A DNA stretch of 64,000 bases from an uncultured Endomicrobiia bacterium. GTDB lineage: Bacteria; Elusimicrobiota; Endomicrobiia; DTEH01. Below the pieces are notes generated by a model. The model did not search any database, was not told where the DNA came from, and worked only from the letters and a program-made list of their open reading frames with translations. Position 1 is the stretch's first letter. The number at the start of each line of letters is the position of its first letter. This document shows positions 20,431 through 58,342 of the stretch, in pieces. The position numbers and the translations under genes are program-made. The stretch covers positions 61,192 through 125,191 of the forward strand of contig CALDDQ010000002.1 in the NCBI GenBank assembly GCA_937936785.1, in the 5' to 3' direction.

Positions 20431-21849
20431 ATGGTAAAAGATATTTATAATCTATTAAAAAATAAATATTTTAGAAATTTTTTTTTATCATTTACATTTT
20501 TTTTATTTAATTATATTTTTGCAGATCAGATAAATGTGTATTTTACAGATCCTACCAACAGTAATCCTGCTGTGAGTCAAATTTCATCTAACCAAAAACC
20601 GATAGATTTTGCGTTACGCGATTTTGTTTTATCGGCTAACAGTGGAACTACAATGTATGTTTGTATTTATGAAGTCAATAACACAACAATCACTACTGCA
20701 ATAGATGAAGTTGTTAACAGAGGGGTGAAAGTTTATTCCATATTTAATGTTGCTGTTAATACATCTGTTTTTAAGACAAACTTTTATTACAAACAATACG
20801 GTTCTTCTGGTTCTCAATATATGCACAACAAATTTGTAGTAATAAAAAGTTCCAAAGTGTGGACGGGGTCATACAACTTTACAGTTTCTGCAACAAAAGA
20901 ACAAGACAACTTTGCTTTAGAAATATTTTCAAAAGATTTGGCTGACATTTATGAGCAAGCTTTTAATTATATATGGGCCTATGGTAGTACAACAATTTCT
21001 ACGGAAGTTGCAAAATTTAATGGAAAAGAAATATTTGTAGATGGAATTTCTATAAAAACATACTTTAATCCATATTCACAAAATCCAGAACTTGCTTCAG
21101 TATTAGTGCAAAATTGGTATGATTCTTCAAACGAAATCTCAAAAGTGAGTAGTTTATACTTTTCTGTTGCATGGTTTACAGAAAGCAGTATTGTAAACAC
21201 AATTAAAACTTTAAAATCAAAAGGCGTATTGGTAAAAGGTATAATTGATGATGATAGTAAAAACTTTGATACTTACTATTCTTTATGGAATTCTTCTGTT
21301 CCAATATATTTTGATGCTAGAAGAACATCTTTTGGAAGTGGTCTTATGCATCACAAGTTTTGTGTTTCTGACCCATACAAAGTTTCAGGCAAAGTTATTG
21401 CCGGTTCTGCTAACTGGTCCGATAGTGCATTAAGAAGCGGTAGAGACAAAAATTACGAAAATATTTTAGTGATACAATCACAAAGTGTAGCAGAAAAATT
21501 TTATTTAGAATATTTAAGATTATATGAAAAAATTAGCGATATGTCATATAATAGTTTATCACAAGAGATAATATCAAAAATTAAATTATATCCTAATCCA
21601 GTAAAAACAAGTTTTAAAATAAGTTTTATTCCATCAATTGCTATAAAAAAAATTGATTTTTATATATACTCTATTTATGGTAGAAAAATTTTTGAACAAA
21701 AGAATGTAAGTTTTTATCCTGAAATTGAAAATATTGTTTTGATACAATTACCCTTGGATATAAACGATGGTATATATTATTTTGTTATAGAAGCAAGTGT
21801 ATTCCAAGATAGAAAAAAATATTATCAAAAATTTGTTGTAGAAAAATGA
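20431..21849 (+). CDS. Secreted phospholipase D (HKD)-superfamily protein with T9SS type-A C-terminal sorting domain
   Basis: Signal peptide. Two HKD-like motifs: 'MHNKFVVIKSS...GSYNFT' (degenerate) and 'MHHKFCVSD...IAGSANWS'. C-terminal 'LYPNPVKTSF...IYSIYGRKI...GIYYFVIEA...KFVVEK' matches a T9SS C-terminal domain. Confidence 0.65.
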   Translation: MVKDIYNLLKNKYFRNFFLSFTFFLFNYIFADQINVYFTDPTNSNPAVSQISSNQKPIDFALRDFVLSANSGTTMYVCIYEVNNTTITTAIDEVVNRGVKVYSIFNVAVNTSVFKTNFYYKQYGSSGSQYMHNKFVVIKSSKVWTGSYNFTVSATKEQDNFALEIFSKDLADIYEQAFNYIWAYGSTTISTEVAKFNGKEIFVDGISIKTYFNPYSQNPELASVLVQNWYDSSNEISKVSSLYFSVAWFTESSIVNTIKTLKSKGVLVKGIIDDDSKNFDTYYSLWNSSVPIYFDARRTSFGSGLMHHKFCVSDPYKVSGKVIAGSANWSDSALRSGRDKNYENILVIQSQSVAEKFYLEYLRLYEKISDMSYNSLSQEIISKIKLYPNPVKTSFKISFIPSIAIKKIDFYIYSIYGRKIFEQKNVSFYPEIENIVLIQLPLDINDGIYYFVIEASVFQDRKKYYQKFVVEK

Positions 21850-23644: not shown

Positions 23645-23721
23645 TTTTTGGTTATAAAAAATGTATTTTTTTATAATTATTGACAATTTATAAAAAATAA
23701 TTTATTAAAGACAACATTCTT

Positions 23722-23794
23722 GGGCCCGTAGCTCAGCTGGTAGAGCACCAGCCTTTTAAGCTGGCTGCCGAGAGTTCGAATCTCTCCGGGCTCA
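23722..23794 (+). tRNA. tRNA-Lys (anticodon UUU)
   Basis: Cloverleaf folded by hand: acceptor GGGCCCG/CGGGCUC (one G-U pair), D-arm GCUC/GAGC, anticodon stem CCAGC/GCUGG with loop CUUUUAA (anticodon at 23755-23757), T-arm GAGAG-UUCGAAU-CUCUC, discriminator A. CCA is not encoded. Confidence 0.9.
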
Positions 23795-24085
23795 GTTTTT
23801 ACTATCCGTTAAGTAGTGTGAAAATTTTTAAGTATTATCTTTTATAATCTATTTAAATTGATAGATTTGTATTTTAATAATTTTATAATACTTGCAAATA
23901 AAAAAACAAAAATATTTTTATCTATGAGATTGTTATAAATGGAAATTAATCTGTGGGTTTTTAATAAATTATTAAAAAAATCTAAAAAATAGTTTATATC
24001 ATAAATTTTTTATCAGTATTTTTTCTGGTCCATACTATACTTATTTTTTTAGTTATAAAAAATTCATTTATCTAATAGTCTTCAA

Positions 24086-24114
24086 AATATTATTGTTGAC
24101 TTTCTGTGTTAAAA
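24086..24114 (+). promoter_or_regulatory. Candidate sigma-70-type promoter for the BMC operon (TTGACT-N17-TATATT)
   Basis: TTGACT at 24086-24091, a 17-nt spacer, TATATT at 24109-24114, about 90 nt upstream of the first BMC gene. Found by eye only; Bacteroidota-type promoter rules may apply instead. Confidence 0.3.
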
Positions 24115-24200
24115 ATGATATATTTACAAGATAAAACGGTTTAAATTAAACAAAATATTTTTATTATAATTAGTGTTAACATTTATTGGAGGTAAGAGAT

Positions 24201-24509
24201 ATGCTTTTTGCACGGGTAATTGGCAATGTTGTTTGTACAAGAAAAGATGATAAATTGAAAGGTTCAAAATTGTTATTGGTCCAACCTGTAGATTTAGAAA
24301 ATAATCCTAAAGGGAATCCTATTGTGGCAGTTGACGCAGTTGGTGCAGGAGAAGGTGAGATGGTTTTGATAGTACAAGGTTCTTCTGCTCGTCAGACAAA
24401 GTATACTGAAGGTACACCTGTAGATTGTACAATTTTTGCAATTGTAGATTCAGCAGAACGTGATGGAAAAAAAGTTTTTAACAAAACACAGGATTATGAT
24501 AAAAGATAA
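24201..24509 (+). CDS. BMC vertex protein (BMC-P; EutN/PduN/CcmL family)
   Basis: 'MLFARVIGNVVCTRK...LLLVQPVD...AVDAVGAGEGEMVLIVQGSSAR'. GGAGG RBS 8 nt upstream of ATG 24201 (the ORF-track start 24186 lies further upstream). Confidence 0.85.
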   Translation: MLFARVIGNVVCTRKDDKLKGSKLLLVQPVDLENNPKGNPIVAVDAVGAGEGEMVLIVQGSSARQTKYTEGTPVDCTIFAIVDSAERDGKKVFNKTQDYDKR

Positions 24510-24552
24510 GGTTTAGTCGTTAACTAAAATTCTATGAAAATTAAACAGGAGA

Positions 24553-26010
24553 ATGTTTATGGTACAAATTACCGAATCTGAACTAAAAAATTTAGTAGAA
24601 CTTGTTTTACAGAGATTAGAACAAAGAAATATAAATTTTGATAATAGTCATACAATTGAGACAGGTATAAATTATTCTAAGTATCATTTATGTTTAACTG
24701 TAGAAGAAGCAGTTACAAGAGCAAAATACGCACAAAAAATATTTCAAAGTTTAGGTCTTGAGAAAAGAAAAGAAATTATAGATAACATCAGAAGAAAAAG
24801 TTTAGAAAATGCACAATATTTAGCACAAATTACTGAAGAAGAAACCAAAATGGGCCGTTGGGAAAATAAGGTAAAAAAAAATGTTTTAGCAGCAATAAAA
24901 ACGCCCGGTGTGGAAGATATTCAGCCTGTAACAGCATACACAGGAGATCATGGTTTGACTTTGGTTGAATATGCACCTTATGGAGTAATTGCTGCTGTTA
25001 CACCATCAACAAATCCAACTTCGACAATAATTAACAATTCAATTTCAATTTTATCAGCAGGAAATTCTGTAATTTTTGCTCCACACCCATCAGCAAAAAA
25101 ATGTTCTCAAGAAACTATAAGAATAATTTATGATGCAATAGTAGAATGTTCTGGTCCGAAAGATTTGATATTAACTATAGATCCGCCTTCTGTAGAAGCA
25201 ACGCAGTCATTATTAAAACATCCTGATATAAAATTGGTAGTTGTTACTGGAGGTCCAGCGATAGTGAAAGTAGCGATGCAGAGTGGTAAAAAAACGATAG
25301 CTGCGGGACCTGGAAATCCGCCTGTAGTAGTAGATGAAACAGCTGTGTTTCCAAAATGTGTAAATGACATAATAGATGGTTCGAGTTTTGATAACGGGAT
25401 TTTGTGTACTGCAGAAAAAGAAGTTATTTTAGTTGAAAGCGTAAAAGAAAAGTTTATATCATACATGCGCAGGGAGACTCGTGCTTACGAACTAACAAAA
25501 GAACAGATGGACCATTTAGCAAAACTTGCAATAAAAGAACCTGCAGGACCACACTGTAAAGAAGGTGTTATAAATCGTGATTTTGTAGGTAAAGATGCAA
25601 ATGTTATTGCTAAAAGTATTGGTTTAAATTTATCTGAAGATATAGTTTTATTATGGGGAGTTGTGCCTAATGATCATCCATATATATGGACAGAACAACT
25701 TATGCCAGTTTTACCCGTTACGGTAGTAAAAGACATTGATGAAGCAATAGATCTTGCAGTTAAGGTTGAAGGAGACAATCATCATACTTTTATAATACAT
25801 TCGTTAAATGTTGACACATTGACAAAAATGGCAAAAGCATGTCAAGGATCAATTTTGGTAAAAAACGGTCCTTCATTTATGGGGTTAGGTTTTGGTGAAG
25901 GATATGCTACCTTAACAATAGCGACACCTACAGGCGATGGTCTTACAAAAGCAAAAAATTTTACAAGACCATTAAGATGTGTTTTGGTAGATTATTTAAG
26001 GATAGTATAA
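24553..26010 (+). CDS. CoA-acylating aldehyde dehydrogenase (PduP/EutE-like), BMC-encapsulated type
   Basis: 485 aa ALDH fold; 'GILCTAEKE' catalytic-Cys region. N-terminal amphipathic 'SELKNLVELVLQRLEQ' resembles an encapsulation peptide. Confidence 0.85.
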   Translation: MFMVQITESELKNLVELVLQRLEQRNINFDNSHTIETGINYSKYHLCLTVEEAVTRAKYAQKIFQSLGLEKRKEIIDNIRRKSLENAQYLAQITEEETKMGRWENKVKKNVLAAIKTPGVEDIQPVTAYTGDHGLTLVEYAPYGVIAAVTPSTNPTSTIINNSISILSAGNSVIFAPHPSAKKCSQETIRIIYDAIVECSGPKDLILTIDPPSVEATQSLLKHPDIKLVVVTGGPAIVKVAMQSGKKTIAAGPGNPPVVVDETAVFPKCVNDIIDGSSFDNGILCTAEKEVILVESVKEKFISYMRRETRAYELTKEQMDHLAKLAIKEPAGPHCKEGVINRDFVGKDANVIAKSIGLNLSEDIVLLWGVVPNDHPYIWTEQLMPVLPVTVVKDIDEAIDLAVKVEGDNHHTFIIHSLNVDTLTKMAKACQGSILVKNGPSFMGLGFGEGYATLTIATPTGDGLTKAKNFTRPLRCVLVDYLRIV

Positions 26011-26032
26011 TTTATTTAATAAAAAAAAGTTT

Positions 26033-27358
26033 ATGGATGAGATAATTTATAGAATAAAAAGTGCTGGTATAGTAGGTGCAGGTGGTGCTGGGTTTCCAAC
26101 ATATTTTAAGTTAGAATCTGCAAAAGGTAAAGTTGATACTTATATAATCAATGCAGCCGAGTGTGAACCGTTATTAAAAGTTGACCAACAAATTTTAAAA
26201 GTTTATACAGAAGAAATTTTATCTGCAGCAAAGAAAGTTGGTGATTATCTCGGAGTGAAGAAGATTGTTATAGGAATAAAAGAAAAGTACAAAGATGCTA
26301 TAGAAGTTTTAGAAAAAAGTATCAAACAATATAATAATATAGAACTATATTTGTTAGAAAATTTTTATCCTGCAGGGGATGAGTTTACCTTAATAAACGA
26401 AGTTACAGGCAGGATTATTCCGGAGGGCGGGTTACCAGTAAATGTTGGTTGTGTGGTAAATAATGTTGTTACATTACTAAACATTTATAACGCAATTGAA
26501 AAAAATATTTCTGTTATTACGAGACCTGTGAGTATTGTAGGTGAAGTAAAAGATCCAAAAACTTTAATAGTTCCGGTTGGGACAATTATTAAGGATTTAA
26601 TAAAATTATGCGGTGGGACAACAGTGGAACATTTTGCGATTATTGATGGTGGTCCGATGATGGGAAAAGTTGTCTGTGAAGATGATGTTGTTACAAAACG
26701 TACTTCAGGTATACTTGTGTTACCTTTAGAACATCCTGTTGTTATTATGAAAACAGTATCTGAACATCAGTATTTGTATCAGATAAAATCTGCTTGTGAA
26801 CAATGCCAGGATTGTACCGAAATTTGTCCGAGGTATTTGTTGGGTCATGAATTTGAATGTCACAAGATTCAAAGATCTGTGTCATATCAAATAGACGAAT
26901 TTTTAACACAAGCGTTTTTATGTTGTGAATGTGGACTTTGTGATTGGGTTTGTCCTATGTATCTATTACCAAGAAAAACAAACCAGTTAGTGAAACAAAT
27001 TTTAATAAAAAAAGGAATAAAAAATTCGCATAACAAAAAACCTGATAATGTTCGTGCAACAAAAGAATATAGAAAAGTGCCTGTAGAACGTTTAATTTCA
27101 AGATTTAATTTAACAGAATATTTATCAAAAGAAGCACCTTTAGAATTAGATGTTAAAGAATTTTCTGTTGTTAAAATACCTTTGGTACAACACATTGGCG
27201 CAAAACCTGTTTCTGTGGTAAAAGTTGGAGATGAAGTAAAAAAGAATGATTTGATATCTGTCATAGATGATTACAAATTAGGGACAAATCATCATGCATC
27301 AATAGATGGTAAAATAATTTTAGTTAATGACGAACATATTGTAATAAGCAAAAATTAG
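26033..27358 (+). CDS. pduS: PduS-like / RnfC-like Fe-S flavoprotein (BMC-associated)
   Basis: 'SAGIVGAGGAGFPTYFKL...INAAECEPLL' RnfC/PduS N-terminal motif. Two 4Fe-4S motifs: 'CEQCQDCTEICP' and 'CCECGLCDWVCP'. Confidence 0.8.
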   Translation: MDEIIYRIKSAGIVGAGGAGFPTYFKLESAKGKVDTYIINAAECEPLLKVDQQILKVYTEEILSAAKKVGDYLGVKKIVIGIKEKYKDAIEVLEKSIKQYNNIELYLLENFYPAGDEFTLINEVTGRIIPEGGLPVNVGCVVNNVVTLLNIYNAIEKNISVITRPVSIVGEVKDPKTLIVPVGTIIKDLIKLCGGTTVEHFAIIDGGPMMGKVVCEDDVVTKRTSGILVLPLEHPVVIMKTVSEHQYLYQIKSACEQCQDCTEICPRYLLGHEFECHKIQRSVSYQIDEFLTQAFLCCECGLCDWVCPMYLLPRKTNQLVKQILIKKGIKNSHNKKPDNVRATKEYRKVPVERLISRFNLTEYLSKEAPLELDVKEFSVVKIPLVQHIGAKPVSVVKVGDEVKKNDLISVIDDYKLGTNHHASIDGKIILVNDEHIVISKN

Positions 27359-27372
27359 TGGAGGCATAATTT

Positions 27373-27927
27373 ATGCAATCATCATTAGTATTATTAGAAT
27401 TAAATTCAATTGCTCGTGGGCTAGAAACTGCAGATGCAATGTGCAAAGTTGCCACAGTAAATTTGATTGATGCATATGCAATTTGTCCTGGGAAATATAT
27501 CATAATAATAAACGGTTTATTAGCAGATGTGCAGTCATCTTTAAACAAAGGTATAGAAGTTGCGCAGCAACATTTAATTGATAAGTTGTTAATACCTAAC
27601 ATTAGTCCAAAAATTATTCCTGCAATATTAGGAACGTCAAAGATAAGACAAAATATAATTTCGTTAGGTTCTATAGAAACATTTTCAGCAGCAAGTTGTA
27701 TTGTTGCATCAGATTTAGCATCGAAAAAAGCAGATGTTGATTTGATAGAAATACGATTAGCAAAAGGTTTAGGTGGAAAATCGTATGTAACATTATGTTC
27801 TGATGATGTAGGTGCAGTAAAAAGTGCAATTAACGAAGCTGTAATTTATACCAAAAAAAATGGTTCACTGGTACAAAAAACAGTTATTCCACAGATACAT
27901 CCTGATATGTTAAAAACAATTTTATAG
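27373..27927 (+). CDS. pduT: Tandem-BMC-domain shell protein (BMC-T), PduT-like with Fe-S-ligand cysteine
   Basis: 184 aa, the same length as PduT. Two BMC domains ('LVLLELNSIARGLETADAMCKVATV' and 'SLGSIETFSAASCIVASDLASKKADV'). 'AICPGK' corresponds to the PduT [4Fe-4S]-ligating Cys. Confidence 0.8.
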   Translation: MQSSLVLLELNSIARGLETADAMCKVATVNLIDAYAICPGKYIIIINGLLADVQSSLNKGIEVAQQHLIDKLLIPNISPKIIPAILGTSKIRQNIISLGSIETFSAASCIVASDLASKKADVDLIEIRLAKGLGGKSYVTLCSDDVGAVKSAINEAVIYTKKNGSLVQKTVIPQIHPDMLKTIL

Positions 27928-27948
27928 GGATTATGATGTGAGGGAAGT

Positions 27949-28401
27949 ATGAATATAGTAATAGGTTCAGACCATGGAGGGTTTAAATTAAAAGAAATAT
28001 TAAAAAAGTTTTTGCAATTACAAAATCATACTGTGGCAGATTTTGGTTGTTATTCGGAGGAACCTGTTGATTGGACAGACATTGCATTATTAGTAGCAGA
28101 ATCGGTAAAGGACAGATATTATGATTTTGGTATTTTGATTGACGGGTTTGGTGGAGCTGTATGTCTTGCAGCAAACAAGGTTAAAGGAGTTCGTGCAGTT
28201 TGTGCATATAACGAATTTTCAGCTAGATTAGCAAAAGAACATGACGATGCAAACATACTATGTCTTGGTGGCAAGACAGTTGGTGATTTGGAAAATATTG
28301 AAATCGTGAAATCCTTTTTGTCAGCACTGCCTGCGAAAGATGAAAAATATTTACGTAGGTTAAAAAAGTTGGATGATATTGAAAAAAAATATTTTAAATA
28401 A
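27949..28401 (+). CDS. Ribose-5-phosphate isomerase B / LacAB-family sugar-phosphate isomerase, paralogue 1 (divergent)
   Basis: 'IVIGSDHGGFKLK'; 'GILIDGFGGAVCLAANKVKGVRAV' (Asp where RpiB normally has the catalytic Cys). Confidence 0.75.
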   Translation: MNIVIGSDHGGFKLKEILKKFLQLQNHTVADFGCYSEEPVDWTDIALLVAESVKDRYYDFGILIDGFGGAVCLAANKVKGVRAVCAYNEFSARLAKEHDDANILCLGGKTVGDLENIEIVKSFLSALPAKDEKYLRRLKKLDDIEKKYFK

Positions 28402-28407
28402 AAAATT

Positions 28408-28875
28408 ATGAACTTAGCAATAGCTTCAGATCATACAGGGTTTGAGATAAAAAAAAATCTTGTTAAAAAACTTAATAATGAAGGGTATAATGTAATAGAT
28501 TTTGGTTGTTATAGTGATGAAAGTTGTGATTATCCTGATTATGCAATAAAAGTATCAAAAGCTGTTCAAAGAAAAGATGCAAAATTTGGGATATTAATTT
28601 GTGGTAGTGGTATAGGGATGAGCATTGTTGCAAACAAATTTAAAGGTATTCGTGCAGGATTGTGTTTTTCGGAAGAAACAGCCAAACTTATTGCAGAACA
28701 CAATTTCGCAAACATAATATGTTTACCTGCAAGAATAAAAGTTTGTGGTGAGAATATATCCGAGGATAAACTTTATTTATGGATAAAGATCTGGTTAACA
28801 ACTTCAAATTCAACTGAAGATAGGCATATTAACAGAATAAAAAAAATTGAGTTGTTAGAGAAAGAGATTTTGTAA
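28408..28875 (+). CDS. rpiB: Ribose-5-phosphate isomerase B (RpiB/LacAB family), paralogue 2 (canonical)
   Basis: 'LAIASDHTGFEIK'; 'GILICGSGIGMSIVANKFKGIRA' with the conserved Cys. Confidence 0.8.
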   Translation: MNLAIASDHTGFEIKKNLVKKLNNEGYNVIDFGCYSDESCDYPDYAIKVSKAVQRKDAKFGILICGSGIGMSIVANKFKGIRAGLCFSEETAKLIAEHNFANIICLPARIKVCGENISEDKLYLWIKIWLTTSNSTEDRHINRIKKIELLEKEIL

Positions 28876-28900
28876 AAAGTTTTTTAAAGAGGCTAATGTT

Positions 28901-29299
28901 ATGATAAAAAAAATGTATTTATTAACAATGATACTTTTTCAAACAATTGTCTATGGACAAGAAAATTTAGATGATATTATAAAATTGTTAAACTCAGGAC
29001 AAAATGACAATGCAATAAACATGTTAAAATCTTTGGGTTCTGATAATGAAATATTGTTTGCGATAGCATATCTTGAGAAAAAAGATTTTTCTAATGCTAA
29101 AAGTTATGCTTTAAAAAGTTTTTCAAAAAATTCTAGTATTGTGGTTGCAAGTTATATTTTAGCACAGATATATGAAGAGCAGAAAGATTATTTAACTGCA
29201 ATAAAATATTGGGACAACGTATATCGTAATGCAAAAGATAAGACAGTGAAAATGTTAGCAAAAAAACAGTGTGAAGTTTTAAAAGTTTTAACAAAATGA
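28901..29299 (+). CDS. Small exported TPR-like protein
   Basis: Signal peptide 'MIKKMYLLTMILFQTIVYGQ'; helical repeat-like composition. No family recognised. Confidence 0.35.
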   Translation: MIKKMYLLTMILFQTIVYGQENLDDIIKLLNSGQNDNAINMLKSLGSDNEILFAIAYLEKKDFSNAKSYALKSFSKNSSIVVASYILAQIYEEQKDYLTAIKYWDNVYRNAKDKTVKMLAKKQCEVLKVLTK

Positions 29300-29877
29300 A
29301 AATAATATATAATACAACTGCCAAATTTTTAATTTTATTAACCATGTTGTTTTATGTTGGTTGTACGCTAACGCCAAGAGGTGTGTTTTATAAAGATTTT
29401 GACCCGAGAAGAATTTCAGTTATTTCAGTAGGACAATTTACAACTTCAAGTGGTAATGCTATTAGTGACTATGTGAAAAATTTAATGATACAAAATTTGT
29501 TAGCAAGAAACTTTACTGTAAAAGAAGTTAACTCGGAAGATGTAGATTATGTATTATTAGGGAGTGTAACAAAATTTTTGCCAGAGAAAAAATTTTTAGT
29601 ATACACAGGGACAAACAAACAACAAGTAATGTTAGGTGGTCCTTTGACAGAAATTAGTGGTAGTAATGTGTACAACATTGGCACTGCATTTGGTGTTTCG
29701 GATGGAGAAATAGTTGTTACTAACGCTACAGTAGGAGTTAGTGCGAGGTTAGTAGAAAAAAGAACAGGTAATGTTGTCTGGAGCAGTTCATTTTCGTACG
29801 AAGCGCTAACTGCAGATACTGCAGCAGAAATTGTTGCAAATTATTTGATTACTTCATTGACAGGGTTAAGAAGATAG
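29296..29877 (+). CDS. Putative lipoprotein
   Basis: Signal peptide with lipobox-like 'LFYVGC' followed by a Ser/Thr/Gly-rich beta-type domain. No family recognised. Confidence 0.4.
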   Translation: MKIIYNTTAKFLILLTMLFYVGCTLTPRGVFYKDFDPRRISVISVGQFTTSSGNAISDYVKNLMIQNLLARNFTVKEVNSEDVDYVLLGSVTKFLPEKKFLVYTGTNKQQVMLGGPLTEISGSNVYNIGTAFGVSDGEIVVTNATVGVSARLVEKRTGNVVWSSSFSYEALTADTAAEIVANYLITSLTGLRR

Positions 29878-29902
29878 CTCTAAACAAGGAGAATAAAAAA
29901 TT

Positions 29903-30193
29903 ATGCAAGCAGGGATAGTAGTAGGCCGTGTTTGGGCAACACAAGAATATGAAAGTTTGAAAGGAAAAAAATTGTTGTTAGTATTACCAACAACATGGGA
30001 TAAAAAAATTAAATCTAATGATCCGATTGTTATGGTAGATACAGTAGGTGCGGGTGCAGGTGAGTTTATTTTTTATGTTTCATCTAGAGAAGCAGCAGTA
30101 GCTTGTGGTGGCAACAGTTTAAAAGATACACCTCCGGTAGATGCAGCTATTGTTGGAATAATTGATGGAATAAATTTAACAGAGGAATTATAA
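29903..30193 (+). CDS. BMC vertex protein (BMC-P; EutN/CcmL family), paralogue 2
   Basis: 'MQAGIVVGRVWATQEYESLKGKKLLLV...MVDTVGAGAGEF'. Confidence 0.85.
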   Translation: MQAGIVVGRVWATQEYESLKGKKLLLVLPTTWDKKIKSNDPIVMVDTVGAGAGEFIFYVSSREAAVACGGNSLKDTPPVDAAIVGIIDGINLTEEL

Positions 30194-30492
30194 TGTTTAT
30201 AGCAAAAGTTGTAGGAAATCTTTGGGCTACAAGAAAACATAAAAGTTTAGAAGGTGGAAAACTTTTATTAGTAAAAAAGTGTGATGGTTTAACAGGCAAG
30301 TTTTACAATGAAGAACCATCTTTAGCAATTGACATAAATATTGGAGCAGGTATTGGCGATATTGTTTTAGTTATGGATGAAGGCAGTTCTGCTAGACAAA
30401 TTCTAAACAACAAAATTGCTCCTGTTAGAACAATAGTATGTGGAATTATTGATTTGGTAAATTCTGGCAAACAAACAAAAAAATGGCATTAA
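30193..30492 (+). CDS. BMC vertex protein (BMC-P; EutN/CcmL family), paralogue 3
   Basis: 'MFIAKVVGNLWATRKHKSLEGGKLLLV...AIDINIGAGIGDIVLV'. Start overlaps the upstream stop by 1 nt. Confidence 0.8.
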   Translation: MFIAKVVGNLWATRKHKSLEGGKLLLVKKCDGLTGKFYNEEPSLAIDINIGAGIGDIVLVMDEGSSARQILNNKIAPVRTIVCGIIDLVNSGKQTKKWH

Positions 30493-30530
30493 ATGTTAAG
30501 ACAAAAAAAAATTAAGGAGTTAAATAGATT

Positions 30531-32027
30531 ATGAAAAACTTGTTATGTATTTTAATGGGTGGAGACAGAAATTTGCAAACAGCGTTTAATGCAGTGAAAG
30601 AGTTTACAAAAATTTTTATAGTAAAAATTTTTGTAAGCAAATCAGCAACACAAATTATTGGCACAGAAAAGATAAAGTCAGAATTAAGAGGTTGTGAAAT
30701 TATTATACCAAACGGAGAATATCTTGACCCACATAAATTATCTAATTGGGCAGATGTTTTAGTTATTCCGATTTTAACTTTGAACGGTTTGGCAAAAATT
30801 GTAAATCTTATGCCAGATAGTCAACAGATTAATATTACGATTGGTTGTCTGGAAAAAGGTATTCCAGTGATTGTATCAAAGGATAGTGTATTTTGTTCTT
30901 GTTATCCAGACCCTTCTGTGAACAGTCCATTATATAGAAAAGTAGAACAAAATTTGTCAGAGTTAAAATCATTAGGGATAACAGTTTCTACAGGTGAAAA
31001 TTTAGTTAACAATGTTTTAATACAATGTGGTATGGTAGAAAGTGTGATAAAACCATCTTCAGGTGGGAAAATTTTTTCTAACAACAAAATAATTAATGTA
31101 ACTTCAACTACACTTGGAAAAAATTTTGTTTCTGATAATGTAAATGTTACGATAGGTTCAGCAGGAAAAATATTTTCTAAGCCTCTAACAAAAAGTGGTA
31201 ATATTATTGATGATATTTGTGTCGCATTTAAGTTGAGTGACACATCACAAAATTTAGAATGTTTAAGTTGTGGAAAATGCGTAGAACGAAAAAAAAGATC
31301 CGTAGCACAAGTAATAAATGCTGGTGCAGATAGAATTGCTGCATATGATGTAAAAGATGTTGGGAAAGAAATTGCTCCATTAATAGATCACACCTTACTT
31401 AAAGCAAATGCAACTCAAGAAGAGATTGTAAAATTGTGTGAAGAAGCGAAGAAATATAAGTTTGCTTCTGTATGTGTCAATCCCGCATATGTAAATTTGT
31501 GTAAGCAACTATTAGGATCAAGTTCAGTAAAGGTATGCACAGTGATAGGGTTTCCGTTGGGAGCAACAACTTCGACTGTCAAAGCAATAGAAACAAAAGA
31601 AGCAATTGCAAACGGTGCAGATGAAGTTGATATGGTAATAAATATAGGTGCACTAAAATCAGGAAATTATCAATTGGTTTTTGATGACATTAAATCTGTT
31701 AGGGAAGCCTCTAGAGGAAAAATTTTAAAGGTAATAATTGAAACTGCATATTTAACTAAAGAAGAAAAAATTAAAGCATGTGAATTGTCCAAAGAAGCAG
31801 GTGCAGATTTTGTAAAAACATCAACAGGATTTGGACCTTCAGGTGCAACAGCAGAAGATATTGCATTAATGAAATTTGTTGTTGGACCTAAAATTGGTGT
31901 TAAAGCTTCTGGTGGAATACGTTCATTAGATGATGCAGTAAAAATGGTGAAAGCAGGAGCGACACGAGTAGGAGCTTCTGCTTCAGTAGCAATTGTAAGA
32001 GGTGAAGTTGGTAAAAGTAAATATTAA
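30531..32027 (+). CDS. deoC: Fusion protein: N-terminal degenerate flavoprotein (HFCD/CoaC)-fold domain plus Cys-rich linker plus C-terminal class I deoxyribose-phosphate aldolase (DeoC)
   Basis: C-terminal about 230 aa are near-canonical DeoC ('[11 protein letters not shown]', '[11 protein letters not shown]', Schiff-base Lys in '[10 protein letters not shown]', '[10 protein letters not shown]'). N-terminal 'CILMGG...[18 protein letters not shown]...LKSLGITV' resembles the flavoprotein fold but lacks the FMN-binding signatures. Linker carries 'ECLSCGKC'. Confidence 0.8.
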
Positions 32028-32107
32028 AAAAACAGTTAACTAAAAAATGACAGTAAATAAAATTTTATAAAAAACCCGTGGAAAAATTTTTTATACAGGA
32101 GGAATTT

Positions 32108-32404
32108 ATGGAAGAGAAAGATGCAGTAGGAATGATAGAAACGCGCGGAATGGTTGGTATGGTAGAAGCCACAGATGCAATGGTAAAAGCGGCAAAGGTT
32201 AGACATATTGGGTATGAAAAGGTTGGGACAGGTTTAGTAACAACTTTTGTAAGAGGAGAAGTTGGAGCAGTGAGAGCTGCAGTTGAATCTGGTGCTGCCG
32301 CAGCACAGAAAGTTGGTGAGTTAGTTTCTGTCCATGTAATTCCGCGTCCACATGAGTATTTGGAAAAATTGTTGTCTAAAATAGAAAAAGATTTTGAAAA
32401 ATAA
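32108..32404 (+). CDS. BMC hexamer shell protein (BMC-H; PduA/EutM-like)
   Basis: 'AVGMIETRGMVGMVEATDAMVKAAKV...GEVGAVRAAVESG'. Start taken at ATG 32108, which follows a GGAGG RBS; the ORF-track start 32078 is a GTG. Confidence 0.85.
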   Translation: MEEKDAVGMIETRGMVGMVEATDAMVKAAKVRHIGYEKVGTGLVTTFVRGEVGAVRAAVESGAAAAQKVGELVSVHVIPRPHEYLEKLLSKIEKDFEK

Positions 32405-32455
32405 AAACTTTTTATTCCAAATTTTAATGATTTTAATTTTTTGATAAATTTTTAA

Positions 32456-32770
32456 ATGAATAAAGAAGTTATTGTTGAGATTATTATTGAAGAACTTAAG
32501 AAACTTGGTTATTATGTTAATACAGAATCTCAATCAACAAATTTGGCTAAAAATTATAAATCAGGTTTTTTTACCAAAGAAAAATATATAAAAAGTGTAA
32601 CATCATTACCACCGGGTAAAAAATTAATTACAGAATATGATGTTAGACAGTATATTAAACTAAAAAATAACACAAAAGAATTTATAGTTCCAGAAAATGT
32701 TATTATAGGTCCTTTAGCAGAAGATTTAATAAATAGTTTAGAACTAAAGATTGTAAAGAAAAAAGGTTAA
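32456..32770 (+). CDS. Hypothetical protein (104 aa) immediately downstream of BMC-H
   Basis: ORF only; no recognisable motifs. Confidence 0.3.
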   Translation: MNKEVIVEIIIEELKKLGYYVNTESQSTNLAKNYKSGFFTKEKYIKSVTSLPPGKKLITEYDVRQYIKLKNNTKEFIVPENVIIGPLAEDLINSLELKIVKKKG

Positions 32771-32849: not shown

Positions 32850-33929
32850 TTGATGAACATAGACCAACTGTTGCAGGTTATGATAAAAACAGGGATTTCG
32901 GATATACATTTTAAATCAAACTCTGCCCCGTTAATAAGAATGAATGGGAAACTTATACCAACACAATATGAAAAGTTTACAAATGAATCAATACAAAAAA
33001 TGGCATATAGTTTAATGAACGATGTTCAAAAAAAAATTTTTGAGCAAGAAAACGAATTAGATTTTGCATATTCAATTTCTGGCTATGCAAGATTTAGAGT
33101 TAATATTTATAAACAAAAAAATTCTGTAGCTTTAACATTAAGAGTAATACCATTAGATTTAAAAACATTTCAAGATTTACATTTACCAAACGATGTTTTG
33201 ACAAAATTATGTAATGAATCACGGGGGTTAGTTTTAATAACAGGAGTGACAGGTTCAGGTAAAACAACGACATTAAATGCGATGTTGAATTTTATAAACG
33301 AAAAGTATCAATATAATATAATTACTGTAGAAGATCCAATTGAATATTATCATATTGACAAAAAATCTTCAATTTCTCAACGGGAAATAGGTAGTGATAC
33401 AAAATCGTTCAAGAATGCTTTAAGATACGTTTTAAGACAAGATCCAGATGTTGTAGTAATAGGAGAAATGCGCGATTTTGAAGCAATTTCTGCCGGGATA
33501 ACAGCAGCAGAAACAGGGCACTTAGTATTATCAACTATACATACTATAGATGCAGTACAAACAATTGATAGAATAATTGATACATATCCGCCACATCAAC
33601 AAAAACAAGCAAGGATTCAGTTATCTAATGTTTTAAAAGGTATTATTGGTCAAAGACTATGTTTATTAAATTCAGGCGAAGGAAGAATTCCTGCAACAGA
33701 AGTGTTAATAGCAACATCATTAGTTAGAAAATTAATTTTAGAAGATAAACCTCAAGAACTTTATAAAGCCATGGAAAATGGTGCATATTATTTAATGCAT
33801 ACATTTGACCAGGCATTATTAAAATTACATATTGATGGTGTAATTTCTTTTGAAGAAGCGATGGACAAAGCTACTAATCCAGAAGATTTACAATTAAAAC
33901 TTCGTGGAATTTCACAATCAAAAAGTTAA
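32850..33929 (+). CDS. pilT: Type IV pilus retraction ATPase PilT
   Basis: 'ISDIHF', Walker A 'GVTGSGKTTTL', Asp box 'NIITVEDPIEY', His box 'GHLVLSTIHT'; 359 aa. Confidence 0.85.
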   Translation: MMNIDQLLQVMIKTGISDIHFKSNSAPLIRMNGKLIPTQYEKFTNESIQKMAYSLMNDVQKKIFEQENELDFAYSISGYARFRVNIYKQKNSVALTLRVIPLDLKTFQDLHLPNDVLTKLCNESRGLVLITGVTGSGKTTTLNAMLNFINEKYQYNIITVEDPIEYYHIDKKSSISQREIGSDTKSFKNALRYVLRQDPDVVVIGEMRDFEAISAGITAAETGHLVLSTIHTIDAVQTIDRIIDTYPPHQQKQARIQLSNVLKGIIGQRLCLLNSGEGRIPATEVLIATSLVRKLILEDKPQELYKAMENGAYYLMHTFDQALLKLHIDGVISFEEAMDKATNPEDLQLKLRGISQSKS

Positions 33930-33947
33930 TTTTGGAGAAAATATTTC

Positions 33948-34778
33948 GTGAATGAATCAAGAAAGGATTTAAACGATATTTTATCAGAACTACATAAAGT
34001 ATTAGATGATTTATCTTTAGAAACAGGGGTGAAGGAAAAGTTAGAACCAGTAATTTCTAAAGAACCAAAATTAGATGAACTGGTTTCAGATAATAAGATT
34101 AAAAAAGAAGATATTGCTTTAGACACAGAACAAAATGTTAAGTTGAATACTTTGGTTAATGACAAAGAAAAAGAAATTTTCCAAGAATCAAAGGAATTTT
34201 ATGTGGAAGATAAAAAAGAACCATTGGTTGACAAACAAACGGTTGCTTTTGAACAAAATCATGCTGAACAACAACAAGATTTGCATGGACATCTGGTTAA
34301 TAACAATAACACAGAAAAAGTTTTAGAAGAAAAGTTACCACAAGAAACTAAAATAAAAGAATCTCAATCACAAGAATCTATTGTAATAAAACAAGAAGAT
34401 ATAAATCAAACTATAATAAATACAATCATTATATATCCTAAAAGTATTCCGGATGCTAAACAAACTTTTTATGATCAAGTCAACACAACATTAAAACGAG
34501 TAAGTAAAAAACCAGTAAGGATGATTTCTGTTTGGGAATTGCAGTATGAAAATTCAGAACAAGATTTGATAAAAAATTATAATTGGCTATTGTCACAGAT
34601 AAAAACAAATGATGTAAAAGGTCTTTTTTTTATAACGAATGAAGCAGTAATTTTAGATGATTTCATAAAAAAGGTTGCAATGGAAGTTTTTATGATAAAA
34701 TCTATAAAATATTCAGAACTTAAATCAAAATCTATATATTTGGATATAGCAATTGACATACTACTTACTGTAAAATAA
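33948..34778 (+). CDS. Acidic hypothetical protein whose C-terminal about 140 aa domain is shared with the downstream DnaA-like protein
   Basis: The Glu/Lys/Gln-rich N-terminal half is low complexity. C-terminal 'IIIYPKS...NYNWLLSQIKTNDVKGLFFIT...SIYLDIAIDILL' aligns by eye with the C-terminus of the 34790..36694 product. Confidence 0.4.
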   Translation: MNESRKDLNDILSELHKVLDDLSLETGVKEKLEPVISKEPKLDELVSDNKIKKEDIALDTEQNVKLNTLVNDKEKEIFQESKEFYVEDKKEPLVDKQTVAFEQNHAEQQQDLHGHLVNNNNTEKVLEEKLPQETKIKESQSQESIVIKQEDINQTIINTIIIYPKSIPDAKQTFYDQVNTTLKRVSKKPVRMISVWELQYENSEQDLIKNYNWLLSQIKTNDVKGLFFITNEAVILDDFIKKVAMEVFMIKSIKYSELKSKSIYLDIAIDILLTVK

Positions 34779-34789
34779 AATAATAAAAA

Positions 34790-36694
34790 ATGATAACTTC
34801 TTGGGAGTTAAAATTTTCTCCTGTTGAAAAATATTCCAACAGGTATAGATTAAAGGTAAATTGTTCTAATGAAGATGTTGAAGAAATTAGTAGTTTTTTA
34901 AAAGACGAGTTAAAACTTGATATATCACCTGCGTTTCAATCTTTAAGTGGCGAATATAACTGGGGAATTTATATTTATGATTTGAAGAATGATGAAAAAC
35001 AAAAACTCGTAGAAAAAATGTTTTTTGTATGTAAAAATGGTTTTGTAGAGGATAAAGAAAAAATGCAACCAAATGTAGAAAAAACAAATGTTGCAGATGT
35101 TTCACCCGAGCTAGGAAATATTTTATCAGATTTAGTAAAAAATATGACAGAAAAAGCTGTTGCTACAAATTCAGAAAAAGAAACTTTTGTAAATGTAAAA
35201 ACTATTGAAGAAGAATATCAAGGGTTACCTTTAGTTCCAAGATATACATTTGAAAATTTTGTAGTAGGTCCAAATAATAGGTTTACTCACGCAGCAGCAT
35301 TGGCTGTTGCAGAAAATCCTGGCAAAACTTATAATCCATTATTTATTTATGGTGGAGTAGGTCTTGGTAAAACACATTTAATGCAAGCTGTAGGGCATTT
35401 TTTAAAAACAAAAAAACCTCTAAGTAAAATCATGTATATAACTTCAGAAAAATTTGTAAGTCAAGTTATAGAAGCTATAAGAAAAGGTGGAATTCGTAAT
35501 TTACGCGATTCGTATCGTGATATAGATTTACTTTTGATTGATGATATACAATTTATGGCAGATTCAGAATCTACTCAAGAAGAATTTTTCCATATATTTA
35601 ACACATTACACCAATATGGCCGGCAGATAGTAATGACTAGTGATAGACCACCAAAATTACTTACAACTTTAGAGGATAGATTAAGGTCAAGGTTTGAGTG
35701 GGGCTTAATTGCAGATATAAAATCTCCTTCATTAGAGACACGTGTCGCAATTTTAAAACGCAAAGGTGAAGAAGAAAATGTTAATTTAGATGATAATATT
35801 TTGTTATACATAGCATCAAAACTTAAGTCCAACATTCGTGAATTAGAAGGTTTTTTAAAACGAATAAATGTGTATGCAAATTTGACGAATCAGCCAGTAG
35901 ATATTACTTTAGTTAAACAATTAATGAGCGAATTGTTACCAAAAGAAGAACTTACTGATGAAGAAAAAAGTATTTTAGAAAAAAGTAATGAAGAGACATC
36001 TTCTTCGACTAAGGATGTTGTATCTATTCCCAAACCGAAACCCAAGGTTCAAACATTTAAATCAGCAACACAAAATGACAGTCGTGATAATGTAAAAACT
36101 GTTGTTCAAAAAGTAAAACCAATTTCAATTGAGAACATATATAAATCATCTAAAGAAATTCCTAATACAGTATCAAAACCAGAATCAAAAAATATAGAAG
36201 AACAAAAATTTGTTGTAGAACAACAAAATAAGATTTCTCCACAACAGAATGAAGATAAACTAATAAAGATAGATGAAGAAAAATTTTATCAGGACTACGA
36301 ATCTGCAGTTAATGTAGTTGAAGTATCATTTTTTTATCCGGAGGGTAAGTTAGAAGAGTTGTATGTAGTAAAACAGAAGTTTGCTGAAATTATCAAAAAA
36401 CATAATTTAAGATACAAAATAGTTACAGCTTTTGATAGGCCATATGCATTAGAAAACATAAACTATAAAATGTTTTTAGAATTATGTAAAACTAATAAAA
36501 TTGATGTTTGTGTTTTAATCTCGCCACAACCCGGCGAGATAGTTTCTACGGAAGAATTTTATGAAAACATAGCTCCGTTAATGGAAGCAGGAGAGATTAT
36601 CTTTGAATTCATTCCTTGGCGTGATTTAACTAAAGAATATAGATATTTAAACCTAGCATTAGACATTGCATTGTCAAAATTTAAATTAGAATAA
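34790..36694 (+). CDS. DnaA-like AAA+ ATPase: canonical DnaA domain III, but no DnaA domain IV (DNA-binding HTH); instead a charged linker and an unrecognised C-terminal domain
   Basis: Domain III motifs: 'RYTFENFVVGPNNRFTHAAALAVAENPGKTYNPLFIYGGVGLGKTHL', 'IDLLLIDDIQF', 'QEEFFHIFNTLHQYGRQIVMTSDRPP', 'LEDRLRSRFEWGLIADI', 'SNIRELEGFLKRI'. No 'GGRDHTTV'-type signature anywhere C-terminal. Not followed by dnaN. Confidence 0.6.
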   Translation: MITSWELKFSPVEKYSNRYRLKVNCSNEDVEEISSFLKDELKLDISPAFQSLSGEYNWGIYIYDLKNDEKQKLVEKMFFVCKNGFVEDKEKMQPNVEKTNVADVSPELGNILSDLVKNMTEKAVATNSEKETFVNVKTIEEEYQGLPLVPRYTFENFVVGPNNRFTHAAALAVAENPGKTYNPLFIYGGVGLGKTHLMQAVGHFLKTKKPLSKIMYITSEKFVSQVIEAIRKGGIRNLRDSYRDIDLLLIDDIQFMADSESTQEEFFHIFNTLHQYGRQIVMTSDRPPKLLTTLEDRLRSRFEWGLIADIKSPSLETRVAILKRKGEEENVNLDDNILLYIASKLKSNIRELEGFLKRINVYANLTNQPVDITLVKQLMSELLPKEELTDEEKSILEKSNEETSSSTKDVVSIPKPKPKVQTFKSATQNDSRDNVKTVVQKVKPISIENIYKSSKEIPNTVSKPESKNIEEQKFVVEQQNKISPQQNEDKLIKIDEEKFYQDYESAVNVVEVSFFYPEGKLEELYVVKQKFAEIIKKHNLRYKIVTAFDRPYALENINYKMFLELCKTNKIDVCVLISPQPGEIVSTEEFYENIAPLMEAGEIIFEFIPWRDLTKEYRYLNLALDIALSKFKLE

Positions 36695-56488: not shown

Positions 56489-58342
56489 ATGTTAAAAATA
56501 TTTATATGTTGTTTAATTATTTTTTCTTGCAACCTTTATAGCAATAATTTTAAAGATGAAAATTTTATTGCAGGGATAGCATTAAAAGATTTTGGATTTC
56601 CCGGGTGGGCAAAAAAATATACGGCATCAACTTTAGATGCTGTAAGAAATTCTGCTGCAAAGTGGGTAAGTGTCCATTATTTTAATTCTTATACTTCAAC
56701 TGGTACACCAACAATAGCATCTTCTTATAAATCAGATGGGTATAGTTCTAACCAAGCAAAACTTGATGAATATAAATATGTAATCCAAGAAGCAAAAAAA
56801 CGTGGATATAAAATTTGTTTAATTTCATCATTATTTTTTGGTGAGATGTTAGGTGGGTTATCTGTGGAAGAAGAGGTAGCATTAAATGAATCATTATACA
56901 TTGCTCACAGTAATGATTGGTATGATAACTGGTTTAATTCTTATAAAGAAAGATTAACAGAACTTGCAAATTTAGCAAACGAGTCTGGTGTAGATATGTT
57001 AGCATTAGGGTGGAACATTACTTATGTTACAGGTGATGTGAAAGGTTCTTATGATGTAACATCTAAGTGGAAGGAAATTATTAATGATTTGAGAAAAATA
57101 TATAAAGGAAAAATAATTTTACCTGAAACAACTAATGGTTATGACAATAACTATCTAAAAGGTATAGAAGGACTTTTTAATGATTTAGATTATATAAGTT
57201 TACATCTTACAATGGATGGTTTAAAAGGTTTTAGTGGAAAAAAATACATAGAAGATATTGACGAAATAAAAACAACTTTTAAAATAATTTTTTCCACTTT
57301 TGGTTTTTCAAGATATTATCAATATTATGGCAAGAAAACAATAATTTTTACTACTGTAACAAGCAGCACAAGATGTTTTGAGGGAGTATGGTTTGAAGAA
57401 ATGGTGGAACAACCAGGACTAATTCAAGATTTTGATGCACAAAAAAATGTTTATCAGGCAATGTTTGATGTACTATCTTCTACAGATTGGATTGGAGGGA
57501 CATTTCCGTGGGGATATTGGTGGAAAGATGATTTTTATAAAAACGAAGATGGGAATAATACATATTCTTTTGACAAAGGTGCTTCTATAAGAAAAAAGCC
57601 ATCTGAAGAAGTTGTATATAATTTTTATAGTGTAGAAGAAAAAAAACTTTTATTAAACACTACAACATATTATGAAATTTTTTTAAATAACAAAAATAGT
57701 TTTACAAAGATAATTATCCCAGAAGGAACTTTTAACCAAAATGTTAATATTACAATTTCTACTTTAAGTACTTCAGGTATTACAAAAAGAACAACAAAAG
57801 GAGATGCACAGTTGACTAATATTGGTATTGAGATAAAAACAGATTTAGATTTACAGCCAAGTAAAGGAATAGTAATAGAGACATATTATAAAGATAGTGA
57901 CATAGAACAGATAACAAATGATGAGTCAAAATTAACTTTTGTAATGGTAAACGAAGAAACGAATTTTTTGGATGAAATAAAAAGTATAGTTAATTCTGAT
58001 TATAACCAGATAACAACAACTACTACACACTTATCAAAGTTTGTAATTATTTTACCTTCACAGACAAATCTCTCTGAAGCAAAGGTTGTTATTTATCCAA
58101 ATCCGTTTAATCCGCACAAAAATTTAAATGTTACAATCAAATATTATCCAGCTGATGCTACCGCAACAGTTTACAACCTTTCAGGAGAATTAGTTACTAG
58201 TCTTGTTTATGACAGTTTTTCTGGTAAAACAACTTGGGATGGAAAAAATTCTGGTGGAAACATGGTAGCCAGCGGTATATATTTTGTTTTAATAAAAACA
58301 AACACAAAATCTGCAACTGGCAAAATTGCAGTAATAAAATAA
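56489..58342 (+). CDS. Secreted protein with T9SS type-A C-terminal sorting domain; N-terminal TIM-barrel glycosidase-like region (family not determined)
   Basis: Signal peptide. C-terminal 'VIYPNPFNPHKNLNVTIKYY...ATVYNLSGELV...GIYFVLIKT...GKIAVIK' matches a T9SS C-terminal domain. No catalytic family recognised by eye. Confidence 0.55.
   Translation: MLKIFICCLIIFSCNLYSNNFKDENFIAGIALKDFGFPGWAKKYTASTLDAVRNSAAKWVSVHYFNSYTSTGTPTIASSYKSDGYSSNQAKLDEYKYVIQEAKKRGYKICLISSLFFGEMLGGLSVEEEVALNESLYIAHSNDWYDNWFNSYKERLTELANLANESGVDMLALGWNITYVTGDVKGSYDVTSKWKEIINDLRKIYKGKIILPETTNGYDNNYLKGIEGLFNDLDYISLHLTMDGLKGFSGKKYIEDIDEIKTTFKIIFSTFGFSRYYQYYGKKTIIFTTVTSSTRCFEGVWFEEMVEQPGLIQDFDAQKNVYQAMFDVLSSTDWIGGTFPWGYWWKDDFYKNEDGNNTYSFDKGASIRKKPSEEVVYNFYSVEEKKLLLNTTTYYEIFLNNKNSFTKIIIPEGTFNQNVNITISTLSTSGITKRTTKGDAQLTNIGIEIKTDLDLQPSKGIVIETYYKDSDIEQITNDESKLTFVMVNEETNFLDEIKSIVNSDYNQITTTTTHLSKFVIILPSQTNLSEAKVVIYPNPFNPHKNLNVTIKYYPADATATVYNLSGELVTSLVYDSFSGKTTWDGKNSGGNMVASGIYFVLIKTNTKSATGKIAVIK

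Follow-up and report, generated by a model that had tools for sequence, protein, structure and literature searches.

The window analysed here, 64,000 nucleotides of contig CALDDQ010000002.1 from an uncultured Endomicrobiia bacterium, contains two neighbouring genes that we read, with a probability of roughly 80%, as the MNdh/BMC-T^SE module of an SPU microcompartment in an Endomicrobiia-like bacterium: a flavoprotein of the PduS type and a shell protein of the PduT type that together would conduct electrons across the shell and regenerate NAD+. An initial annotation of this DNA had named a GAGGAGFPT motif and two CxxCxxCxxxCP motifs in the first open reading frame (ORF) and an AICPGK motif in a 184-residue tandem-BMC protein encoded by the second; all lie in those ORFs, and the Pfam matches of the two proteins (E 1.7e-45 for Complex1_51K in the first, E 1.2e-37 for two BMC domains, PF00936, in the second) make chance occurrence untenable. 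The elements of the pair are as follows.

26033..27358, + strand: MNdh, a PduS-type metabolosome NADH dehydrogenase of 441 residues (Pfam, alignment to RnfC structures, motifs, AlphaFold2, Foldseek)
26075..26101, + strand: GAGGAGFPT glycine-rich loop of the flavin/nucleotide site, residues 15–23 (motif; aligns to G(M/L)GGA(T/I)FPT of RnfC)
26795..26830, + strand: first CxxCxxCxxxCP motif, CEQCQDCTEICP, residues 255–266, with C255, C258, C261 and C265 (motif, homologue conservation)
26921..26956, + strand: second CxxCxxCxxxCP motif, CCECGLCDWVCP, residues 297–308, with C297, C300, C303 and C307 (motif, homologue conservation)
27373..27927, + strand: BMC-T^SE, a PduT-type single-layer tandem-BMC trimer of 184 residues (Pfam, alignment to the PDB, CPGK motif as defined in Sutter 2024)

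The flavoprotein has the four domains of an MNdh in the order that defines the family. Specifically, Pfam places Complex1_51K (PF01512), the domain for FMN and NADH, at residues 8–152, SLBB (PF10531) at 166–211, a 4Fe-4S dicluster at 254–311 and the RnfC barrel-sandwich domain (PF13375) at 378–435, so that the RnfC barrel lies at the C-terminus; Fer4_17 and RnfC_N are also matched. Conservation was measured over 115 full-length homologues: the eight cluster cysteines are invariant (100%), and the motifs of the flavin/nucleotide site (G15–T23, E43-C-E-P46 and Y112-P-A-G-D-E117), which RnfC and NuoF have in common with MNdh, are kept in at least 97%. The flavin- and NAD-binding motifs that the initial annotation had wanted checked are thus conserved, within a PduS architecture. 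RnfC structures align to residues 2–309 (HMMER, E 2.4e-55), and the N-terminal barrel of RnfC finds its match, in a separate alignment, at the C-terminus of the window protein; this is the circular permutation typical of PduS. An AlphaFold2 model built from 63 sequences has a mean pLDDT of 93.8, and its best Foldseek matches in the PDB are the RnfC chains 9ERI, 8RBQ and 7ZC6 (TM about 0.65; E 2.8e-25 to 5e-21).

The shell protein carries AICPGK at residues 36–41 (nucleotides 27478–27495), with the codon of Cys38 at 27484–27486. In phmmer searches against solved structures, Cys38 faces the cysteine of TICPGK in Citrobacter PduT (3PAC), so the position assigned to it beforehand, that of the PduT cluster ligand, is borne out; in Salmonella PduT (3N79, the C38S mutant) its counterpart is the serine of TISPGK. 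The PduS/PduT pairs of these two organisms are members of homologous families, with Cys38 of the window protein at the PduT ligand position. The best structural match, 3NWG (E 1.4e-44), carries VCPGK, and PduT-type trimers align to the window protein end to end. Its score on the TIGR02526 equivalog model, 103 bits, falls below the cutoff of 250 bits, indicating a divergent PduT-type member. By its place in the CPGK motif, Cys38 is predicted to be the ligand of a [4Fe-4S] cluster at the pore. K25, which was replaced in the published complex to prevent self-assembly (Sutter 2024, PMC11626177), is present as well. The two genes are separated by a gap of 14 bp, and a GGAGG ribosome-binding site precedes the shell gene.

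Comparison with related loci, obtained through exact-protein look-ups of PduS-like homologues, is consistent with a conserved pair. The closest named homologues of the flavoprotein come from Endomicrobiia (81% identity) and other Elusimicrobiota, and the closest relatives are metagenome-assembled genomes of Endomicrobiia and Elusimicrobiota; homologues from Firmicutes are only about 45–50% identical. A contig scan with the PduS-like query returned one true relative (a metagenome-assembled Elusimicrobiota, 53% identity) and one distant match. The syntenic set comprises four loci, L001, L004, L005 and L006, the last three retrieved with Pfam annotation of their gene tables, flanks included. Most of the gene order is common to the four; in each the MNdh gene adjoins a BMC-T gene in which CPGK is kept, and an aldehyde dehydrogenase gene lies upstream.

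Among solved structures, RnfC (7ZC6, 9ERI, 8AHX) is the closest to the window flavoprotein, with an FMN/NADH site and two 4Fe-4S clusters that wire it to its partner. It is worth considering whether the gene encodes a genuine RnfC, part of a membrane Rnf complex, and lies in the operon by chance. The NCBIfam model TIGR01945 (rnfC) scores the protein at 254.5 bits, slightly over its cutoff of 245.95, which may be the reason why JGI labels close homologues "RnfC subunit". However, RnfC has an N-terminal barrel and membrane subunits as partners, whereas the barrel of the window protein is circularly permuted to the C-terminus and its partner would be a shell protein; moreover, no rnfA, B, D, E or G occurs in the 64-kb window, and in every related locus examined the gene stands beside a CPGK BMC-T gene and an aldehyde dehydrogenase gene. 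The permuted order and the lack of Rnf membrane genes in the window rule this identity out for practical purposes; the probability that we leave to it is negligible.

The pair lies within a compact microcompartment operon of 13 genes (24186–32770), all on the + strand. The other members that bear on the type of compartment are these.

24186..24509, + strand: BMC-P pentamer of the EutN/CcmL family (PF03319, E 1.8e-33)
24553..26010, + strand: CoA-acylating aldehyde dehydrogenase (PF00171; NCBIfam NF011927, 596.8 bits against a cutoff of 403)
27949..28401, + strand: RpiB-family sugar-phosphate isomerase, paralogue 1, 150 residues (PF02502, E 3.6e-43; NCBIfam NF004051)
28408..28875, + strand: RpiB-family sugar-phosphate isomerase, paralogue 2, 155 residues (PF02502, E 5.5e-50; NCBIfam)
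29903..30193, + strand: BMC-P pentamer, paralogue 2 (PF03319, E 2.4e-23)
30193..30492, + strand: BMC-P pentamer, paralogue 3 (PF03319, E 2.8e-24)
30531..32027, + strand: deoxyribose-phosphate aldolase (DERA) fusion of 498 residues, the signature enzyme (TIGR00126, 299 bits against a cutoff of 117; PF01791)
32078..32404, + strand: BMC-H hexamer, the sole one in the window (PF00936, E 8e-27)

The true start of the first BMC-P is likely the ATG at 24201, since its relatives align from residue 6, and that of the BMC-H likely lies near 32108. We assign the compartment to the SPU type because a DeoC-type aldolase with an N-terminal extension, two RpiB proteins, three BMC-P, a BMC-H and a BMC-T are all present, matching Dwyer 2024. 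Likewise, SPU loci as described before (Axen 2014; Sutter 2021; PMC11585597) share with this one an extended DERA with an aldehyde dehydrogenase, RpiB, a triplet of BMC-P with BMC-H and BMC-T^s, and a PduS homologue, and Elusimicrobia are among the SPU host phyla (PMC11585597). Within the type, the lack of a double-layer BMC-T (BMC-T^dp) in the locus and the presence of PTAC and TIM genes in L006 point towards the SPU1/4/7 group. There are also differences. The extension of the window DERA is about 275 residues long, compared with about 70 in the DERA of SPU6 (PMC11585597), and whereas the RPI of SPU loci carries at its N-terminus an encapsulation peptide and linker of about 75 residues (PMC11585597), both tandem RpiB genes of the window begin right after the preceding stop codons, which leaves no room for an N-terminal encapsulation peptide. 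The aldehyde dehydrogenase, encoded directly upstream of the MNdh, does have an amphipathic N-terminal extension of about 45 residues, a putative encapsulation peptide judging from its sequence and from Dwyer 2024.

That loci lacking B12 enzymes, those of the SPU type among them, encode PduS homologues was already described as a puzzle by Axen et al. 2014. PduS binds PduT and carries FMN and two 4Fe-4S clusters, and an exit of electrons through PduT has been suggested (Parsons et al. 2010, PMC2982820). More recently the pair was renamed MNdh/BMC-T^SE in a study that counts SPU loci as hosts (Sutter et al., PNAS 2024, PMC11626177). According to that study, 2,172 loci out of more than 7,000 have the MNdh module, which in 97% of cases adjoins a CP(G/S)K BMC-T; CP(G/S)K is universal in the BMC-T next to MNdh; and MNdh is always accompanied by an aldehyde dehydrogenase, while 361 PduS/T loci have no alcohol dehydrogenase gene (PMC11626177). 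The pair from the GRM1 locus of Clostridium botulinum co-purifies as a stable complex with FMN and Fe-S clusters, turns over NADH with a kcat of 20 per second and passes electrons to the shell cluster, which is reduced by NADH in vitro, as followed by electron paramagnetic resonance and voltammetry (PMC11626177). A PduS homologue is found in all SPU subtypes but SPU6, and MNdh has been cited as a route of NAD+ recycling there (Dwyer et al. 2024, PMC11585597).

The window pair resembles that of C. botulinum in its permuted four-domain order, its 4Fe-4S and flavin motifs and the adjoining tandem BMC with CP(G/S)K and K25; an aldehyde dehydrogenase co-occurs here as well, and no alcohol dehydrogenase was found in the window. 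It differs in its host compartment, which is SPU and not GRM1, and in its phylum. Since the sequence features by which the module is recognised are all present, from the domain order of the flavoprotein to the single-layer tandem BMC in which the CP(G/S)K cysteine aligns with Cys38 of PduT, we take the pair as the electron conduit of the SPU compartment. By analogy with the C. botulinum homologues, from which NADH oxidation, the direction of transfer and complex formation are carried over, we predict that the window MNdh binds FMN and two [4Fe-4S] clusters, oxidises NADH and forms a complex with the trimer; that the pair acts likewise, lies inside the shell and is the sole recycler of NAD+ would follow from the same analogy. 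The initial annotation had favoured redox exchange across the shell, such as NAD regeneration, over cobalamin recycling. That proposal is supported by an NAD+-reducing aldehyde dehydrogenase in the locus and by the 14-bp spacing of the pair; as it coincides with the published MNdh/BMC-T^SE model, which lists SPU loci (PMC11626177), it is well founded and not novel. The same reading was published and tested in 2024 (Sutter) and applied again to SPU-type compartments in 2025. In the latter case, the SPU-type compartments of Hodarchaeales, which are Asgard archaea (bioRxiv 2025, PMC12747264), have, as here, an MNdh and a CPGK T^s and drew the same proposal of electron export; in contrast to them, the window locus is bacterial (Elusimicrobiota-like) and its pentamers lack K/R-rich disordered tails.

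Put together, the mechanism would run as follows. In the lumen, the aldolase would split deoxyribose 5-phosphate into glyceraldehyde 3-phosphate and acetaldehyde, and the aldehyde dehydrogenase would convert the acetaldehyde to acetyl-CoA, reducing a trapped pool of NAD+ and thereby acting as the lumenal source of NADH. The 441-residue flavoprotein, docked on the lumenal face of the BMC-T trimer, would oxidise NADH at its FMN and pass single electrons through its two [4Fe-4S] clusters to a third such cluster, which three Cys38 residues would ligate at the trimer pore; a cytosolic acceptor, perhaps a ferredoxin or flavodoxin, would then carry the electrons off. In this way NAD+ could be regenerated without loss of aldehyde to alcohol.

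The classical role of PduS, that of a cobalamin reductase, has to be weighed against this conduit. Citrobacter PduS binds cobalamin and reduces it in vitro (PMC2982820), and satellite EutABC (EUT) modules, which could supply a need for it, occur in some SPU3, SPU6 and HO genomes (PMC8217296). However, the annotation's claim that the locus has no B12-dependent signature enzyme holds: among + strand ORFs of at least 100 residues across the 64-kb window there is no diol or glycerol dehydratase, ethanolamine ammonia-lyase, adenosyltransferase or B12-binding domain, nor any iron-type alcohol dehydrogenase (PF00465) or PduL-type phosphotransacylase (PF06130). Similarly, the gene tables of L004–L006 and their flanks contain no B12-dependent enzyme or adenosyltransferase. 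The signature enzyme is a class I aldolase, which needs no B12, and it has been argued that the fold leaves scant space for cobalamin and that NADH turnover is independent of B12 (Sutter 2024, PMC11626177). Whereas Pdu compartments hold a B12-dependent diol dehydratase and an alcohol dehydrogenase, the window locus has neither, so that a cobalamin reductase would have no client. As neither the window nor the flanks of L004–L006 were found to encode an enzyme that it could serve, we reject this role, which we consider highly improbable.

The direction of electron flow deserves separate consideration. The same wire could in principle run inward, with reduced ferredoxin in the cytosol passing electrons through the BMC-T and MNdh to form lumenal NADH; the compartment would then be reductive, turning acetyl-CoA into acetaldehyde for condensation with glyceraldehyde 3-phosphate. 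In principle, the reactions of both enzymes, the aldolase and the acylating aldehyde dehydrogenase, can be reversed, and RnfC, the closest solved relative, is part of a reversible ferredoxin:NAD+ oxidoreductase. Against this, the potentials ascribed to the Fe-S clusters of the published complex (−0.147, −0.217 and −0.349 V) fit NADH oxidation and outward transfer (PMC11626177), and both Dwyer 2024 (PMC11585597) and the 2025 archaeal preprint (PMC12747264) read SPU compartments as catabolic. We consider inward flow quite unlikely.

A further alternative accepts the chemistry of MNdh and changes its purpose: O2 would be the main physiological acceptor, at the flavin or at the shell cluster, and the pair would serve chiefly to keep the lumen or its surroundings anoxic, not to export reducing power to metabolism. 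O2 is the sole acceptor demonstrated in vitro, and the possibility has been discussed (Sutter 2024, PMC11626177). Yet the closest relatives belong, as described above, to metagenome-assembled Endomicrobiia and Elusimicrobiota, mostly anaerobes to which O2 would rarely be available, and nothing in the locus codes for an O2-labile protein of the kind of a glycyl radical enzyme. Oxygen scavenging as the main function is, on balance, very unlikely.

Several points weigh against the outward, NAD+-regenerating conduit itself. SPU loci without a phosphotransacylase typically have a BMC-T^dp (PMC11585597), whereas the window locus has neither, which leaves the recycling of CoA and the exit of acetyl-CoA unexplained. 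Outside the 64 kb inspected, the genome could encode an alcohol dehydrogenase or a phosphotransacylase, or contain a satellite B12 EUT module. Half of the published AlphaFold models of the complex put MNdh on the outer face of the shell (PMC11626177); we regard an exterior location as less well supported.

The DERA fusion and its cysteine motif, together with a pair of secreted proteins described below, are more novel than the MNdh pair. In the fusion, a PF02441 flavoprotein-like region (residues about 2–160) is followed by a linker with a cysteine motif and by the aldolase (about 281–489); the N-terminal extension of about 275 residues falls within window positions 30531–31370, which encode the first 280 residues. 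The flavoprotein assignment is based on sequence searches alone: the window extension scores 19.4 bits on PF02441, under the Pfam cutoff of 22.7, while an orthologue of the fusion with 52% identity and many phmmer relatives pass the cutoff. An AlphaFold2 model of the fusion, built with only six aligned sequences, has pLDDT below 50 for residues 61–277. Between the PF02441-like domain and the aldolase lies the motif C230...C244xxC247xxC250, and its form, C-x(6-16)-C-x2-C-x2-C, is kept in most such DERA fusions from diverse lineages; residues 121–124 read FCSC. L001, L004 and L006 have the fusion at full length, and it is found in about 12 clusters at 50% identity. The Hodarchaeales compartments share the DERA–flavoprotein fusion, which was called "uncommon in BMC" (PMC12747264), and the four-cysteine linker motif is not mentioned in the text of that preprint; the main text of Dwyer 2024 does not mention a flavoprotein–DERA fusion.

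The last gene of the operon may be connected with this fusion.

32456..32770, + strand: protein of 104 residues, after the BMC-H gene (TIGR02536 positions 123–206, E 5.4e-6; phmmer against standalone flavoproteins, best E 3e-8)

The protein begins with an amphipathic helix resembling an encapsulation peptide, and its C-terminal 50 or so residues match the C-terminal domain of standalone, microcompartment-associated PF02441 flavoproteins. Those relatives are about 260 residues long and have three parts, namely an encapsulation-peptide-like helix, the PF02441 domain and the C-terminal domain. Hence an ancestral flavoprotein appears, from the sequence matches, to have been split between the DERA fusion and the 104-residue protein. 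It is tempting to speculate that the flavoprotein-like domain, the four-cysteine motif and the 104-residue partner make up another redox centre in the lumen, in electron exchange with MNdh, although we consider this quite unlikely. If true, the shell wire would serve chemistry beyond recycling the NADH of the aldehyde dehydrogenase, for example a redox step on the sugar phosphate, or the signature enzyme would respond to how reduced the lumen is.

The secreted pair lies between the RpiB and BMC-P genes.

28901..29299, + strand: small TPR-like protein with an N-terminal signal-like sequence (weak TPR matches, Pfam)
29296..29877, + strand: putative lipoprotein with a signal sequence ending in VGC (weak GNA1162-like/CsgG matches, Pfam)

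A lipoprotein gene occupies the matching position in all four relatives (tblastn), and a TPR-like gene in three (L004–L006); the TPR-like gene in L005 is recognised by Pfam and position only. The pair spans 28901–29877 in the window, about 13936–14993 in L001, 12873–13849 in L004, 4229–5310 in L005 and 13123–14111 in L006. Exported proteins encoded inside a microcompartment operon are unexpected, and we have no explanation for them.

The upstream boundary of the locus differs between the window and its relatives and includes the following features.

23721..23795, + strand: tRNA-Lys (UUU), at the upstream boundary of the locus (ARAGORN)
24096..24124, + strand: promoter-like site ahead of the first operon gene, TTGACT and TATATT with a 17-nucleotide spacer and a TG extension (consensus scan only, not evidence of function)

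Where the upstream flank is present (L001, L004 and L006), an extra BMC-H precedes the first BMC-P, accompanied in L006 by TIM and PTAC genes. In the window, 23645–24185 holds the tRNA-Lys and non-coding DNA in place of this BMC-H, and a tblastn search upstream of the operon found no decayed BMC-H, PTAC or TIM.

Beyond these features, a polysaccharide-synthesis cluster lies upstream along with the tRNA-Lys; downstream are pilT-like and dnaA-like genes, a dcw cell-wall cluster and pyrimidine genes. Directly after the operon (32850–36694) come a PilT-like ATPase, a 276-residue protein without a family match and a 634-residue DnaA-like protein, in which Pfam finds the DnaA ATPase domain only and no DnaA N- or C-terminal domain. 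This trio is syntenic in L004 (16697–20430), and in L001 and L005 the locus is likewise followed by PilT. Over its first 84 residues, the DnaA-like protein also matches the beginning of a GGDEF protein beside the L006 locus. Elsewhere in the window, PLD-like and GH113-like secreted enzymes (20431–21849 and 56489–58342) bear a C-terminal Por_Secre_tail, a sorting domain of type IX secretion. The G+C content of the window is about 27% overall, with a range of about 24–32%. Across 1–64000, the + strand carries all annotated gene-sized ORFs and each 2-kb bin has a positive GC skew, which fits a long run of co-oriented leading-strand genes.

It is informative to consider what the pair means for the Endomicrobiia and for microcompartments more generally. 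The RnfC labels that its homologues often bear may lead metabolic reconstructions of Elusimicrobiota to postulate an Rnf complex wrongly. The joint absence, nearby, of an alcohol dehydrogenase, a phosphotransacylase and a double-layer BMC-T sharpens the question of how CoA is recycled and acetyl-CoA leaves the compartment. Above all, the locus is one more, hitherto unannotated, Endomicrobiia-type case of a module known from 2,172 of more than 7,000 microcompartment loci, and it agrees with the published view that NAD+ can be recycled electrochemically through the shell.

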